Shown: positions 19,702 to 24,980, numbered from the stretch's first letter. The stretch is 64,000 nt of DNA from Thermoanaerobaculia bacterium (GCA_963837455.1 CAWINM010000001.1:452832-516831), one strand, 5' to 3'. The notes: generated by a model from the letters alone, not told the origin. Numbers and translations: made by a program.

Positions 19702-20581
19702 TCAACCCTTGACGGCCCCGGCGGTGAGGCCGGAGACCAGGTAGCGCTGCAGGAACATGAACAGGGCGCCCACCGGGATGGCGGTGACGATGGCGCCGGC
19801 GGCGAAGTAGCCCCCACTGCTGCGGTGTACCGACGAAGAAACGCGAGGCCGACCGGGGCGGTATACATCGTCTCCTTGTCCATGAAGGTGGCCGCCAGGA
19901 TGAACTCGTTCCATGCCGTCATGAACGAGAACAGCGCGGTCACCGCCACCGCCGGCTTCGCCAGCGGCAGCACGATGCTCAAGAAGACCCTGCCGGCGAG
20001 GCGCCGTCGATGAGCGCCGACTCCTCCAGCTCCCTGGGAATGGTGTCGAAATAGCCCTTGAGCATCCACACGCAAAAGGGTATTGCGGTCATCGCGTAAA
20101 CCAGCACCAGGCCCGGCCAGGTCGAGCCCAGCCAGCCACTTGACGATGATGATGTAGAGCGGGATCAACATCAGCACGCCGGGGAACATCTGCGAGACCA
20201 GGAACGACATCAGCCCGGCGCGGCGCCGCGGGAAGCGGAACCGCGAGAAGGCGTAGCCGGCGGTGCAGGCCAGCGCCACGCCGAGCACCGTCGTCGCCGC
20301 CGAGACGATCGCACTGTTGAACAGCCAGCGCGCGAACGGCTGCTGGGAGAAGAGGTCGGTGAAGTTGGCGGCCGAGAGGTGGTCGGGCCAGGGGATCACC
20401 GCCCGCAGCCGGTCGAGCCAGCTGGGGTCCGGCGGCAGGTGGACGATGGCGAGCTGCTGCTGGCCGGAGAAAGCGATGCTGGACACCCACAGCACGGGGT
20501 AGATGGTGGGTGATCGCCGCCAGCCACCAGGATGAGGTGCAGCGGCCGGTGGGGCGGCTCGTCGCTACGGCGATGGCTCAC
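19702..20581 (-). CDS. MalG-like carbohydrate ABC transporter permease, disrupted by two or more frameshifts (about 19800 and 20500)
   Basis: The N-terminus ([21 protein letters not shown]), the body ([11 protein letters not shown]...EAA motif region) and the C-terminus ([36 protein letters not shown]) lie in three different frames. The GTG start overlaps the malF stop. Confidence 0.6.
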
Positions 20582-22527
20582 GTCACGGCCTCCGTGCCCT
20601 TGGTGACCCGGTTCTGCCAGGTGCCATAGGCGAAGAGGATGAAGAAGATGATCGTCGAGTAGGCGGCAGCGTAGCCATAGCGGTACTGCTCGAAGGCGAT
20701 CTTGTACGCCTCGGTGATGAGGATCTCGGTCGAGCCTGCCGGCTCGCCCGCCGACACCAGGTAGATGATGTTGAACATGTTGAAGGTCCAGATCATCGAG
20801 ATGATCACCGCCGGCACCAGCGCCGGCTTGAGCGAGGGCAGGGTGATGTGCGCAACTGCTGCCAGCGCGAAGCGCCGTCCACCCTCGCCGCCTCGTAGAT
20901 GTCGGTGGAGATCGACTGCAGCGCGCCGAGGGAGATCACCATCATGAAGGGGAACGACAGCCAGCCGTTGGTGGCGAGCATCCGCGGCGAACGAGGTCGC
21001 CGAGCGTGCTCGAACCACGACACTGGCGCAGCCCCGAACAGCTGCAAGACCTGGTTGATCCGCCGAACTGCCGATGGAACATCCCCCTCCAGATCAGCGC
21101 GGTGATGTAGTTCGGCATCGCCCAGGGCAGGATAAGATGACCCGGTAGACGGGACGCAGGGCGAGGCGCGGCGTGTTGAGGATGAGCGCCAGGACGAGCC
21201 CGCCGGTGACGCCCAGGGCGACGTTGGTCACCGTCCAGACGATGGTGAAGAGCAGGGTCCAGTAGAAGTTGCCGTAGTTCCAGGTGAGACCCGCGGCGGT
21301 GTGGGTGACGAGGTGGAAGTCGCCGAGGATGTCGGTGAAGTTGGAGAGACCGACCCACAGCTCGGTGAGCGGCTTCTGACTGTTGTAGATGTTGGCGTTG
21401 GTGAAGGCGAGGGTGATGCCGTAGAGGAAGGGGAAGAAGACCAGCACCAGCATGCCGATCATCGCCGGCAGGGCATAGGCATAGGCGACGCGGAAGCGGA
21501 CCAGGGTGGTCCACGCCTGCAGCGCGGCGCCGGTGCCCACGATCAGGAAGAGGGCAAGCGCCAGGATGACGGCGCCGGCGGCGGGCCGCAGCGCTCTCTT
21601 GCGCACCGCGGCGGCCGCCGCGTCCACGGCCGCCTTCACCAAGCCGGTCGTGGTCAGCTCGCCGCGGGGATGGCGGAAGCGGTCGGCGTCCCAGGCCGCA
21701 GGCTGCAGGGGCTCGTGCGTGGCGGCGCCGAGCTGCGCCAGCACCGCCTCGGCACGCTGTGCCCTGGCGGCAACGTCGACGGCGACCTCGGACGCGGCGC
21801 CGCGGCGGGAGGCCGCCAGCGAGCGGGCGGTCGACAGCGCATAGCCACCGACGCCGGCGACGACGAGCAGCGTCGCCGCCACCCCCGCCAGCCAGCGACG
21901 GCCGCGCAGCAGCGGCCAGAGGGCGAGGAAGGCGACCACGGGCAGCGCCGCCGCCGCCAGCGCTCGCCAGCTCGCCGGCCGCGGCGCCGGCGCCATGGGA
22001 CGCGTGTCCACCTGCACCAGCCCCGCCACCTCGCCACCGGTCACCCAGGGCGTCGACAACCGCAGCCCGCCGTCGGGGAGCTGCTCGACGACGATCTCCT
22101 CCTGCCGCACGCCCCCCTCGCGGTTGGCCTCCACCGCCGAGCGCAGCTGCCGGGCGAGGTCGTACACCGGCTTCTCGTCGCGCACCAGGCGGCGCGGCGG
22201 CGCCCCGCGCTCGCGATCGGCAGCGTCGGTCGAGGCGACCAATGTGCGGCTGTCGATGTCCACCACGCGCAGCGCCCGCACCCGCGGGTCGGCCTCGGTC
22301 CACAGCTCGACGGCCTTGCCGACCACCGACCGCGCCGCCTCGACAGGCGTCTCCTCGATGACGCTGCCCTCCTCGGGCGGCGTGCCGGGGGCCGGCGCCT
22401 GGGCGGCGGCGGCGGCCTCCCGCGCGCGGCCGGCGAGGTCGGCGAAGGCCTGCAGCGAGACCACCGTCCGTCGCGCCGCCAGCTCTTCGGCGAGGCTCGA
22501 GCGCAGCTCGGAGACGCCGGCCCACAC
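20578..22527 (-). CDS. MalF-like carbohydrate ABC transporter permease with roughly 175-aa N-terminal soluble extension, disrupted by about three frameshifts (near 20880, 21050, 21140)
   Basis: MalF-like segments (PWAMPNYITALIWRGMFHRQFGG, INQVLQLFGAAPVSWFE, GWLSFPFMMVISLGALQSI, AHITLPSLKP..., C-terminal ...TWQNRVTKG) are distributed over three reading frames. Confidence 0.55.
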
Positions 22528-22639
22528 TAGCCCGACGCCTATGACGAGGCCGAGCAGCAGCCCGGCGAGCAGGCGCTTGCGTGGGTCGGGGAGCGGACGG
22601 GTAGCTTCGGCGTTCAGGGCAAACCTCCGGCGGGCGCCC

Positions 22640-23866
22640 TCACCCGCGCAGCTTGGCGATACGTTCGATGACTTCCTTCTGCGCCTGCTCGAGCGCCGCC
22701 TTGGGCGTCGCCGCCCTCTTCACCACGGCGTTCATCGCCGTCGTCGCCGGCGACCAGACCATCGTCATCTCGGGCAGGTTGGGCATCGGCACCGCCACTT
22801 CGACCTGCTTGCGGAAGGCCTCGAGGATGGGGTCGGCCTTCACCTGCGGGTCGTCGTAGACCGCCTTGTTGGCCGGCGTCTGGCGCCCCTCGAGGGCGAG
22901 GGTGCGCGCCGCCGGCAGGTCGGTGAGGTACTGGACGAAGTCGTAGGCGGCGTCCTTGCTCTTCGACGGCGCCGCGATGTACACGCCCTCGACGGTCATC
23001 CACGGGCGCATCGGCTTGCCCCCTGCCTCGTCGATGGTGGGCAGCATGGCGAGCCCGTACTTCACCTCGGGCGCGATCTCGCCGAGGAACCACGGGCCGG
23101 AGAAGACCATCGCCGCCTTGCCCTGGTTGAAGAGCGCGGTGATGAGCGCGGTCGAGGGCTCGGCGGGGAGGATCTTGTCCTTGTCGAGCCAGCGCATCAG
23201 CAGCTCGATCGACTTGACGTTGGCAGGGTCGTCGAGCGTCGGCTTGCGGTCGGGGCCGAAGACATGGCCGCCGAAGCCGTTCATCAGCGCGGCGTGGTAG
23301 TAGAAGTCCGAGAACCAGTAGGCGAGGCCGAACCTCCCCTCCGCGGGCTTGCCCAGCTTCTTGGCCAGGGCCACCAGCTCGCCGGTGGTCTTGGGCGGCG
23401 TCTGCACCAGCGCCTTGTTGTAGACGAGGGTGATGACCTTGTAGTTGAGCGGCAGGCCGTAGACGTTGCCCTGGTAGGTCATCGCCTCCATGGTGGAGGG
23501 CAGGAAGCGCTGCTTGGTGGCGTCGTCGAGGAAGAAATCGATGGGCTCGACGGTGTTGCCGGCCACAACCCAGCCGCCCAGGCGGTCCTGCGCGTAGATG
23601 AAGACGTCCGGACCCTTGCCGCGCGGCACCGCGGCGGTGATCTTGTCGGCGAAGGCGTCGTAGGGAACTGCCAGCGTCGTAACCTTGATTCCCTTGGCGG
23701 CGCGCGTCTGGTTGTACGCCGCCACCACCTTCTCGAAGGCGTCCTTCTCACCGCCCCGGTAGGCGTGCCACACCACCAGCTCGGTGGCGGCGCCGGCGGG
23801 AGCCACGGCCGTCAGCACCAGGCCGGCGGCGGCGAGCAGACGCAGGAGAGCGCGCAGGGTCTTCAT
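22640..23866 (-). CDS. maltose/maltodextrin-type extracellular solute-binding protein (family 1 SBP, MalE-like)
   Basis: 408 aa, intact, with a signal peptide and family-1 SBP conservation. Confidence 0.85.
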
Positions 23867-23878
23867 CGCCAGGACCTC

Positions 23879-24980
23879 CTAGACGGCGAGCCGTCGCTCG
23901 CTCGCGGTGTCGAACAGGTGGAGCGCGTCGAGCTCGAGGAGCATGGCCAGCTGGGTGCCCATGGCGGGCACGCGGTGCGGCCCGAGGGTGGCCACCAGCG
24001 AGTGCTCCCCGTGATGGCCGTAGACCACCACCTCGTGCCCCAGCGGCTCGGCGAAGTCGACGTCGAGCGTCAGGGGTGTCGTCTCGCCCGTCACCTCGCC
24101 GCTGCCTACCTCGTGGATCGCCTCGGGCCGGATACCGGCAGTCACCGGCGTCCCGCCCTTGCCGGCGGTCGCCTGCCGCCAGGCCGCCGGCACCGGCAGC
24201 CGCAGGTCGCCGGCGACGAAGGTGCCACCGCCGTCCTCGAGCGACCCCGCCAGCAGGTTCATCGGCAGCGTGCCGATGAACTGGGCGACGAAGAGGTTGG
24301 CGGGGCTGTCGTAGACCTCGAGCGGGCCACCCACCTGCTGCAGCTTGCCGGCGTTCATGCATGGCGATGCGGTGGCCCATCGTCATCGCCTCGACCTGGT
24401 CGTGGGTGACGTAGACGGTGGTGGTCTCGAGGCGCGCGCTGCAGGCTTGCGAGATCTCGGCGCGCATCTGCACCCGCAGCTTGGCGTCGAGGTTGGAGAG
24501 CGGCTCGTCGAAGAGGAAGACCGCCGGCTTGCGGACGATGGCCCGGCCCACCGCCACCCGCTGGCGTTGGCCGCCGGAGAGCTGCTTCGGCTTGCGGTCG
24601 AGCAGGTTGCCGATGCCGAGGATCTGCGCCGCCTCGTCGACCGGCTGGGCCATCTCGCGCGCGGCGTCTTGCGCATCTTGCAGCCCGAACTCGAGGTTCT
24701 CGCGCACCGTCATGTGCGGGTAGAGCGCGTAGCTCTGGAACACCATCGCGATGTCGCGGTCCTTCGGCGGGAGGTCGTTGACCACCCGGTCGCCGATCGA
24801 GATGGTGCCCGCGGTGATCTCCTCGAGGCCGGCGATCATCCGCAGCGCGGTCGACTTGCCGCACCCCGAGGGGCCGACCAGCACCATGAACTCGCGGTCG
24901 TGGACGTCGAGGTCGAGCGCCTCGATCACCGTGAGGTCGCCGTAGCGCTTGGTCACCTTGTCGAACACCACGTCGGCCAT
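23879..24980 (-). CDS. MalK/MsmK-like sugar ABC transporter ATP-binding protein, one frameshift near 24360
   Basis: Walker A (GPSGCGKST), signature ([10 protein letters not shown]) and Walker B motifs are in ORF 23748..24989. The C-terminal regulatory (TOBE) domain is in ORF 23879..24358. The junction sequence RIA|[11 protein letters not shown] implies a 1-nt insertion. Confidence 0.7.

Follow-up and report, generated by a model that had tools for sequence, protein, structure and literature searches.

A 64,000-nt stretch of DNA (the window, in whose coordinates all positions are given) contains an operon for a sugar importer in which both permease genes and the ATPase gene are broken by frameshifts, while the binding-protein gene and the flanking amylase genes are intact. 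This raises the question of whether the importer is being lost from the organism or whether the deposited sequence is in error. The original prediction had put forward both possibilities.

Gene content of the importer operon

The host is a high-GC (73%) Thermoanaerobaculia/Holophagales-like acidobacterium. The importer operon is encoded on the minus strand in the order GH13 amylase, malK, malE, malF, malG, Glucodextran_C protein and outer-membrane protein. The features of the region are as follows:

24996..26732, minus strand: GH13 alpha-amylase, first gene of the operon; intact; Pfam Alpha-amylase and Malt_amylase_C
23879..24989, minus strand: malK-like ABC ATPase; five indels, all in 24358-24679; two ORF fragments in different frames
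22640..23866, minus strand: malE-like substrate-binding protein; intact; Pfam SBP_bac_1 and SBP_bac_8
20578..22620, minus strand: malF-like permease with an N-terminal extension of ~430 aa; five indels in 20847-21136; start uncertain
19702..20581, minus strand: malG-like permease; six indels; GTG start overlapping the malF stop
18848..19705, minus strand: Glucodextran_C-domain protein; intact; PF09985, 204 bits; one frame against its orthologs
16627..18818, minus strand: outer-membrane-like protein of 730 aa with a signal peptide and C-terminal Phe; 1-nt deletion at ~18606
15558..16640, minus strand: second Glucodextran_C-domain protein; intact; PF09985, 114 bits
13811..15490, plus strand: second GH13 alpha-amylase, with a SusG_C domain; intact; Pfam Alpha-amylase, 327 bits over the full profile

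A Pfam search gave no match for the outer-membrane-like protein (16627..18818), whose orthologs occupy the equivalent operon position. Judged from its domains and gene context, the locus is in all likelihood an ordinary starch/maltodextrin utilisation operon encoding a MalEFGK2-type (CUT1) binding-protein-dependent ABC importer. Removal of the indels yielded full-length MalK, MalF and MalG. The corrected MalK matched ABC_tran, OB_MalK and CysA_C_terminal of Pfam, aligned end-to-end with NF008653 (470 bits; cut-off 432) and displayed the features of a CUT1 ATPase, including Walker A, LSGGQ, Walker B, the H-loop (THDQ) and a C-terminal OB/TOBE domain. The corrected MalF and MalG matched BPD_transp_1 at 76 bits (profile positions 2-175 of 184) and 81.7 bits (positions 1-181 of 184), compared with 25 bits for the best uncorrected MalF fragment and 24.5 bits for the MalG fragment; as deposited, the malF and malG fragments each fell under the Pfam gathering cut-off. 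Both corrected permeases had the EAA loop expected of CUT1 permeases alongside this domain, with EAARVDGASRWQQ among the motifs visible in the ortholog alignments. The binding protein of the system is supplied by the operon gene at 22640-23866.

When compared with E. coli MalEFGK2, the operon was found to share (i) an ATPase with the MalK OB/TOBE domain; (ii) a periplasmic binding protein; and (iii) a pair of EAA-loop permeases of the BPD_transp_1 family. In NCBIfam, the permeases were best matched by MalF and MalG and the binding protein by MalE, while the ATPase matched a UgpC/MalK-type subfamily model first and MalK second. The equivalog cut-offs of NCBIfam were not reached (MalK, 371 vs 568; MalF, 189 vs 392; MalG, 186 vs 261; MalE, 181 vs 291), and by these sequence scores the operon proteins are Mal-like and not equivalogs of E. 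coli MalE, MalF, MalG or MalK. As in maltose systems, the operon is set among GH13 amylases, a context that suggests its substrate. Unlike the E. coli system, MalF carries the ~430-aa N-terminal extension, and Glucodextran_C proteins plus a large outer-membrane protein replace LamB/MalM.

Distribution of indels in the window

Indels were called by frameshift-aware alignment to orthologs. At least 17 small indels were detected in 18606-24679, with five in malK, five in malF, six in malG and one in the downstream outer-membrane gene; thus, the six or more originally predicted for the importer genes (one in malK, about three in malF and two in malG) were confirmed and exceeded. Alignment to the intact malK of L081, the closest relative, revealed insertions at 24679 and 24358 and a deletion at 24659, in addition to a 2-nt insertion at ~24450 and a 1-nt insertion at ~24434 that together are net in frame. 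In malF, deletions at 21136, 21062, ~21006 and 20847 and an insertion at 20981 produced the frame path -2 > -1 > -3 > -2, and identical events were obtained with three different orthologs; no ATG, GTG or TTG was present in frame at the malF start (22600-22620), where an extra error is possible. The malG events, whose sites agreed across four orthologs, were insertions at 20523, 20507, 19843 and 19812, a deletion at 19991 and a 2-nt deletion at ~20131. In the outer-membrane gene, tblastn and frameshift-aware alignment located a frame switch at 18603-18609, reflecting the loss of one nucleotide from a run of G. The frame jumps of the importer genes were independently recovered by a GC3 frame plot and GC3 Viterbi segmentation.

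The indels were grouped in three short patches (24358-24679, 19812-21136 and 18606), and 17 of the 20 events detected in the 64-kb window fell within 6.1 kb (binomial P about 4e-15), a density ~50 times that of the remainder. The predicted confinement of the damage to 19702-24980 was borne out in its strong clustering, but the zone extends to 18606 in the outer-membrane gene. As anticipated, the binding protein and the amylases were intact, with no events in malE, 24996-26732 or 13811-15490; the Glucodextran_C gene at 18848-19705 was also clean, an apparent 1-nt insertion at 19699 being an alignment artefact of its unconserved N-terminus. Against L081, the malE product was 88% identical with no frameshift events, and the amylase at 24996..26732 aligned in a single frame with 79% amino-acid identity and likewise no events. 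Insertions and deletions were about equal in number in the operon. The original prediction had placed several indels in G or C runs; only 3 of the 17 events (20507, 19812 and 18606) were in homopolymer runs of at least 3 bases.

Other long genes of the window had been described as free of frameshifts, which proved incorrect: the outer-membrane gene and two genes outside the operon each carry one. The latter two sites are:

34044..34075, plus strand: amidase gene; isolated 1-nt insertion at 34064, context TTCGGACAG[C]GACATC
56450..56480, minus strand: M12B/reprolysin-like metalloprotease gene; isolated 1-nt insertion at 56464, context TTCGGG[C]CAGAAC

The Amidase profile was split between ORF 32501-34561 (positions 2-314) and ORF 34044-34472 (positions 360-444), with a possible second frameshift nearby at ~34740, and the reprolysin profile was split between ORF 55006-57342 and ORF 55269-56591. 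GC3 segmentation suggested two further candidates (~43.7 kb and ~63.0 kb), which turned out to be normal gene boundaries when the ORFs were read.

Frame-corrected genes and their orthologs

After correction, malK, malF and malG contained no stop codons and had GC3 values of 0.97, 0.93 and 0.92, respectively, compared with 0.89-0.96 in intact neighbours. All invariant alignment columns were retained, namely 109 in malK (71 orthologs), 85 in malF (63) and 105 in malG (57). Private deviations numbered one in malK, two in malF and one in malG, and the orthologs themselves span a comparable range. With a substitution:indel ratio of 5-10, assumed on the basis of bacterial mutation-accumulation studies, decay predicts 13-27 substitutions at invariant columns, and four were seen (P ≤ 0.003). 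In a relative-rate test of malK, the sole broken gene with a close relative suited to this purpose, there were 10 window-specific and 11 L081-specific changes, with half of the 10 adjoining indel sites. Nucleotide identity to L081 was 0.887 within the malK patch vs 0.907 in the clean 5′ part.

The operon gene order was common to dozens of Thermoanaerobaculia, Holophagales and Myxococcota loci, and 81 orthologous loci were screened for frameshifts. No frameshifts were found in 77, a single doubtful event was found in L070, and three were multi-frameshifted (L077, ~18 events; L024, 13; L059, 6), with the events mostly outside homopolymers and almost all insertions. These three, two of which (L024 and L059) share one sample, are all Microflora Danica ('MFD...bin') MAGs. 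L077 mirrors the window in that its ~25 frame changes are limited to the operon, with the flanks and malE clean. Frames were continuous in short-read MAGs such as L022 and in the JGI contigs L081 and L082; N-terminal events called in L022 and L048 were alignment artefacts of unconserved N-termini. Comparison with orthologous loci, which the original prediction had proposed, spoke for intact frames in 77 of 81 loci and in L081 malK, but not in the three MFD MAGs. No genome of the same species, in which intact frames could be seen, was found in the collections. Apart from the window's own protein, the best MalE was 89% identical; it lies on a 4.6-kb JGI contig reaching only the start of malF, and contigs L082 and P0006 end within malF as well. 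The MAGs of the MFD-LR catalogue were built from nanopore reads alone, with metaFlye as the assembler and a single round of Medaka polishing (PMC12313526), and in nanopore bins with coverage under ~40x, frameshift-causing indels have to be removed by polishing with short reads (PMC9262707).

Weighing decay, recoding and consensus error

One explanation is genuine pseudogenisation, in which malK, malF and malG are inactivated and decaying while extracellular/periplasmic starch degradation and MalE are kept. The deposited frameshifts do abolish all three membrane/ATPase subunits at a density ~50-fold that of the rest of the window, most of the indels are outside homopolymers, and neither malE nor either amylase is damaged. 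In bacteria, spontaneous indels also concentrate in homopolymers. Pseudogenes of reductive evolution (e.g., Mycobacterium leprae and recent symbionts) also accumulate stops, larger deletions and relaxed substitution patterns. The importer genes resemble these in having several frameshifts per gene and in being neighbouring genes of one pathway, but beyond the disrupted frames no relaxation of constraint was found: the corrected genes had no stops, larger deletions, GC3 drift, lost invariant residues or excess change at conserved positions, and malK was not accelerated. Neutral decay would not be expected to leave 17 indels and practically no substitutions, and such an indel-only spectrum without substitution load is a picture that genuine decay would not yield. 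In addition, the outer-membrane, amidase and protease genes are also frameshifted, and among MAGs with an orthologous operon the multi-frameshift state was shared by three unrelated nanopore ones but by no short-read one. Decay of the importer is thus improbable. Less probable still is that the indels are real products of an indel-only, operon-restricted mutational process that inactivated the operon, spared malE and acted independently in this genome, L077 and L024 (soil lineages); if true, this would amount to a previously undescribed form of localised mutagenesis or of regulated gene inactivation. Programmed recoding, through ribosomal frameshifting or transcriptional slippage, has in its favour the sole point that frame changes exist. 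It would need 17 or more sites, shifting in both directions and including 2-nt events, several of them 16-31 nt apart with garbled conserved residues in between; no shared slippery motif was found, and none of the events was conserved in the 57-71 orthologs, whose frames are continuous. This non-conservation and the lack of a slippery sequence already refute recoding, leaving it a negligible probability.

We conclude that the operon indels are very probably not mutations but errors in the consensus of a metagenome assembled from long reads, probably nanopore reads. Consensus error is favoured because the multi-frameshift operons track sequencing technology among the 81 loci. A protein identical to the window's MalE is recorded for a contig of 2,563,781 bp, a size beyond short-read metagenome assembly, from which we infer that the source is a long-read assembly. 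The locally error-prone assembly stretch that had been offered as the second cause is thus the one supported, by the indel-only spectrum and by the parallel with the MFD nanopore MAGs, and similar single-base frameshifts occur in unrelated genes of the window (amidase, 34064; protease, 56464). The locus is similar to known indel errors of nanopore MAGs (IDEEL-type tests, PMC9262707; MFD-LR catalogue, PMC12313526) in its single-base indels, its lack of other gene damage and its megabase-scale contig. It differs from classic nanopore error reports, which stress homopolymers, as most of its events are outside runs of at least 3 bases and are strongly patchy instead of evenly spread. Weighing against consensus error are this missing homopolymer signature (3 of 17 events), the extreme patchiness, the balance of insertions and deletions compared with the almost insertion-only comparison MAGs, and the absence of events from malE (P about 0.03-0.04 each in the window and L077). 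That non-homopolymer indels argue against a technical cause, as had been proposed, is contradicted by the three nanopore-only MAGs, where the identical type fills the orthologous operon.

The patches may reflect local low depth or, alternatively, mixed reads from co-occurring populations whose copies of this widespread operon are alike. The latter, a technical sub-case in which the polisher introduces indels where reads from related populations pile up or where the operon has been collapsed as a repeat between genomes, is a tentative possibility. The operon and its gene order are common to co-occurring Acidobacteriota and Myxococcota, the L077 error zone matches the operon boundaries, L024 and L059 from one sample are both affected, and 150-nt tiles bearing events were more nucleotide-conserved across the 81 loci than event-free tiles (Mann-Whitney p about 1e-6), a measure biased by the retrieval of these loci with malE patterns. 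Counter to a mixed consensus, malE is clean despite nucleotide conservation equal to that of malK and malG, and the malK patch is without the substitution excess that a hybrid consensus might carry. Attraction of foreign reads to conserved stretches was rejected, as it fits the clean malF N-terminal extension and Glucodextran_C gene but not the clean malE. Sequence motifs were also considered at the indel sites: (i) 4 of 19 sites contained AGATG (158 k-mers compared, uncorrected p=2e-4, with the whole window, GC-richer than the operon, as background); and (ii) 12 of 53 events in four assemblies had a GATC no more than 12 nt away, vs 6.9 expected (p=0.04). Neither was convincing, and CATC/GATG and CCWGG were not enriched at the indel sites.

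The broken importer is very probably an artefact and, as biology, without importance. Loss of cytoplasmic maltodextrin uptake should not be inferred for this organism, whose corrected genes most likely encode a working maltodextrin importer. The locus is a caution that long-read MAG contigs can contain patches on the kilobase scale, at 1-3 indels per kb, beside clean sequence, and that automated pipelines will label such patches pseudogene clusters. Correcting the frames and then checking for stop codons, GC3 drift and invariant-residue loss provides a simple control to separate artefact from decay. The recurrence of an error patch in one operon of independent MAGs may also be of interest to developers of metagenome polishers.

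Layout of the Mal-like importer operon

The window has a G+C content of 73%, with third codon positions at ~95% G+C, so that the reading frame is legible directly from composition. One operon on the minus strand spans 16.6-26.7 kb, and its genes are listed here in order of transcription.

Genes of the MalEFGK-like importer operon (window positions)
26732-24996, minus: GH13 amylase (1st)
24989-23879, minus: MalK-like ATPase (2nd)
23866-22640, minus: MalE-like binding protein (3rd)
~22620-20578, minus: MalF-like permease with ~430-aa N-terminal extension (4th)
20581-19702, minus: MalG-like permease (5th)
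19705-18848, minus: Glucodextran_C-domain protein (6th)
~18818-16627, minus: 730-aa outer-membrane-like protein (7th)

Beyond the gene of the 730-aa protein lie a second Glucodextran_C gene and then a second GH13 amylase. Dozens of Thermoanaerobaculia/Holophagales MAGs share this gene order, as do Myxococcota (e.g., Archangium and Hyalangium). The locus appears to work like the MalEFGK2 maltodextrin importer (CUT1 family), with all structural features present after correction of the frames; none of the four window proteins reaches the cut-off of its E. coli equivalog model in NCBIfam, and thus the importer is described here as Mal-like rather than as an equivalog. Maltodextrin is the presumed substrate, since GH13 amylases flank the importer. 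At the malF start (22600-22630, minus), no ATG, GTG, or TTG was detected in frame past the ribosome-binding site GGAGG. Only a CTG stands in frame there, and a nearby TTG lies in another frame and is followed by TGA; malF may have a rare CTG start or else carry one further indel.

Distribution of frameshifts in the window

Frame-shifting indels (events) were called with a purpose-written protein-to-DNA aligner that tolerates frame changes, using several orthologs per gene, and the event sites agreed whichever ortholog was used.

Events in the operon (frameshift-aware alignment, minus strand)
malK, 5 events: +1 at 24679; -1 at 24659; +2 at ~24450; +1 at ~24434; +1 at 24358
malF, 5 events: -1 at 21136, 21062, and ~21006; +1 at 20981; -1 at 20847
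malG, 6 events: +1 at 20523 and 20507; -2 at ~20131; -1 at 19991; +1 at 19843 and 19812
Outer-membrane gene, 1 event: -1 at 18606, in a G run

The malK events were confirmed base by base by nucleotide alignment to L081, a JGI contig that represents the closest relative (89% identity in MalE and 82% in DNA). The frameshifts of the original prediction are therefore real, but were undercounted (17 events by ortholog alignment) and are more widespread than proposed: malG, malF, and malK are broken as described, while the damage reaches beyond the importer to 18606. The binding protein and both amylases had been considered intact, and indeed no events were detected in malE, the two amylases, or the Glucodextran_C gene. 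Only 3 of the 17 events were located in runs of at least three identical bases, unlike textbook nanopore error, and no convincing sequence motif was found at the event sites. Programmed frameshifting was excluded, as the sites are unconserved and slippery sites are absent.

The whole window was also scanned by segmentation based on G+C at third codon positions (GC3), followed by ORF reading and Pfam. Two further genes were found to be split, counter to the earlier view that long genes elsewhere are unbroken.

Split genes outside the operon (GC3 segmentation, ORFs, and Pfam)
34064 (34044-34075), plus: amidase gene, 1 inserted base
56464 (56450-56480), minus: M12B/reprolysin-like metalloprotease gene with PKD domains, 1 inserted base

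A candidate 1-nt deletion was also observed at ~34740 (plus), where the coding signal passes from +f2 to +f1 within a short gene that lies upstream of one encoding a LolD-like ABC ATPase. Other boundaries flagged by the segmentation were ordinary gene ends. Overall, 17 of 20 events fall within 6.1 kb (P about 4e-15), in patches at 24358-24679 and 19812-21136 plus the site at 18606. The N-terminal 1.4 kb of malF, malE, and the Glucodextran_C gene were event-free, with a chance P of zero events of 0.02-0.09 each.

Decay or assembly error

Decay of the importer was one of two causes originally put forward. Had 17 indels accumulated without constraint, many more substitutions would be due as well, and these were not seen. 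With the indels taken out, the malK, malF, and malG frames had no stop codons, and their GC3 (0.97, 0.93, and 0.92, respectively) equaled that of the intact neighbors. The invariant columns were all kept in malK (109 columns, 71 orthologs), malF (85, 63), and malG (105, 57); private deviations of the window at otherwise invariant columns numbered 1, 2, and 1, respectively, which is within the orthologs' own range. With a substitution:indel ratio of 5-10 assumed, in line with bacterial mutation-accumulation work, 13-27 hits at invariant columns were expected under decay vs the 4 observed (P ≤ 0.003). A relative-rate test of MalK against L081 gave 10 window-specific and 11 L081-specific changes, with half of the former touching indel sites, and DNA identity to L081 was the same in the malK patch as outside. 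The corrected permeases matched BPD_transp_1 at full length with 76 and 82 bits, up from 25 bits in fragment form; the corrected ATPase exceeded the cut-off of the UgpC/MalK-type model, likewise at full length. Thus, the damage consists of indels only, and apart from the broken frame none of the pseudogene features tested was found, making genuine decay of the importer very improbable.

The alternative cause, an error-prone stretch of the assembly, was better supported by the comparison with orthologous loci. A protein identical to the window MalE sits on a single 2,563,781-bp contig, a length that suggests a long-read assembly. All 81 orthologous loci were screened for frame changes, and the positives were then aligned. 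Frames were continuous in short-read MAGs and JGI contigs; operons with multiple frameshifts were found only in L077, L024, and L059, three loci titled as entries of the Microflora Danica long-read catalogue.

Frameshifted orthologous operons (positions in each locus)
L077, 7200-17100: about 18 aligned events, about 25 frame changes
L024, 12500-14000: 13 events, 10 of these within 0.8 kb of malG
L059, 8100-16100: 6 events

This catalogue is nanopore-only, with metaFlye assembly and one round of Medaka polishing (PMC12313526), and nanopore bins below about 40x coverage need short-read polishing against frameshift-causing indels (PMC9262707). Single-base indels in the three operons were almost all insertions in mostly non-homopolymer contexts, and stops were essentially absent from the corrected frames. 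The frame changes of L077 were limited to the orthologous operon with clean flanks and malE, close to the window pattern. Lineage-specific decay would not recur in this indel-only form in unrelated genomes with just the sequencing method in common. We conclude that the importer frameshifts are very probably an assembly artifact in an ordinary carbohydrate-uptake operon, and loss of maltodextrin import should not be concluded from them. As the three operons carry 6 to about 25 indels, the public records of these MAGs hold similar false pseudogene clusters, and kilobase-scale indel patches are to be expected in long-read MAG contigs. One possible reason for the clustering is that this widely shared operon drew in reads of related populations, or was collapsed as a repeat between genomes, and that its consensus was spoiled in this way. 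Tiles with events were more conserved at the nucleotide level than event-free tiles (81 loci, p about 1e-6); however, malE is equally conserved yet clean, and the loci behind this measure were retrieved through malE, such that we regard this explanation as possible but less likely than not.

Composition, putative outer-membrane module, and distribution of the locus

G+C falls to 0.66-0.69 at 16000-21000 and 44000-46000 vs 0.72-0.78 elsewhere, with the first dip spanning the outer-membrane gene, the Glucodextran_C gene, malG, and the 3′ part of malF. The N-terminal ~430 codons of malF (about 21330-22620, minus) are Ala/Arg-rich with the motifs DEKPVYDL and WDADRFRHPRG and had neither a Pfam nor an NCBIfam match; the extension is common to the orthologs, whose MalF frames run roughly 660-1100 aa from stop to stop. 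At 15558-19705 (minus), the 730-aa protein lies between two Glucodextran_C-domain proteins; it has a signal peptide, a C-terminal Phe, and a beta-barrel look, with no Pfam match. This trio downstream of malG is kept in many Acidobacteriota and Myxococcota loci and may form an outer-membrane module for maltodextrin capture and uptake. MalE orthologs with 65-70% identity and an unchanged operon order are present both in Myxococcota (Archangium, Hyalangium, and Vitiosangium) and in Acidobacteriota (orthologous loci L030, L034, L049, L056, L061, L069, and others), which suggests that the locus moved between phyla.
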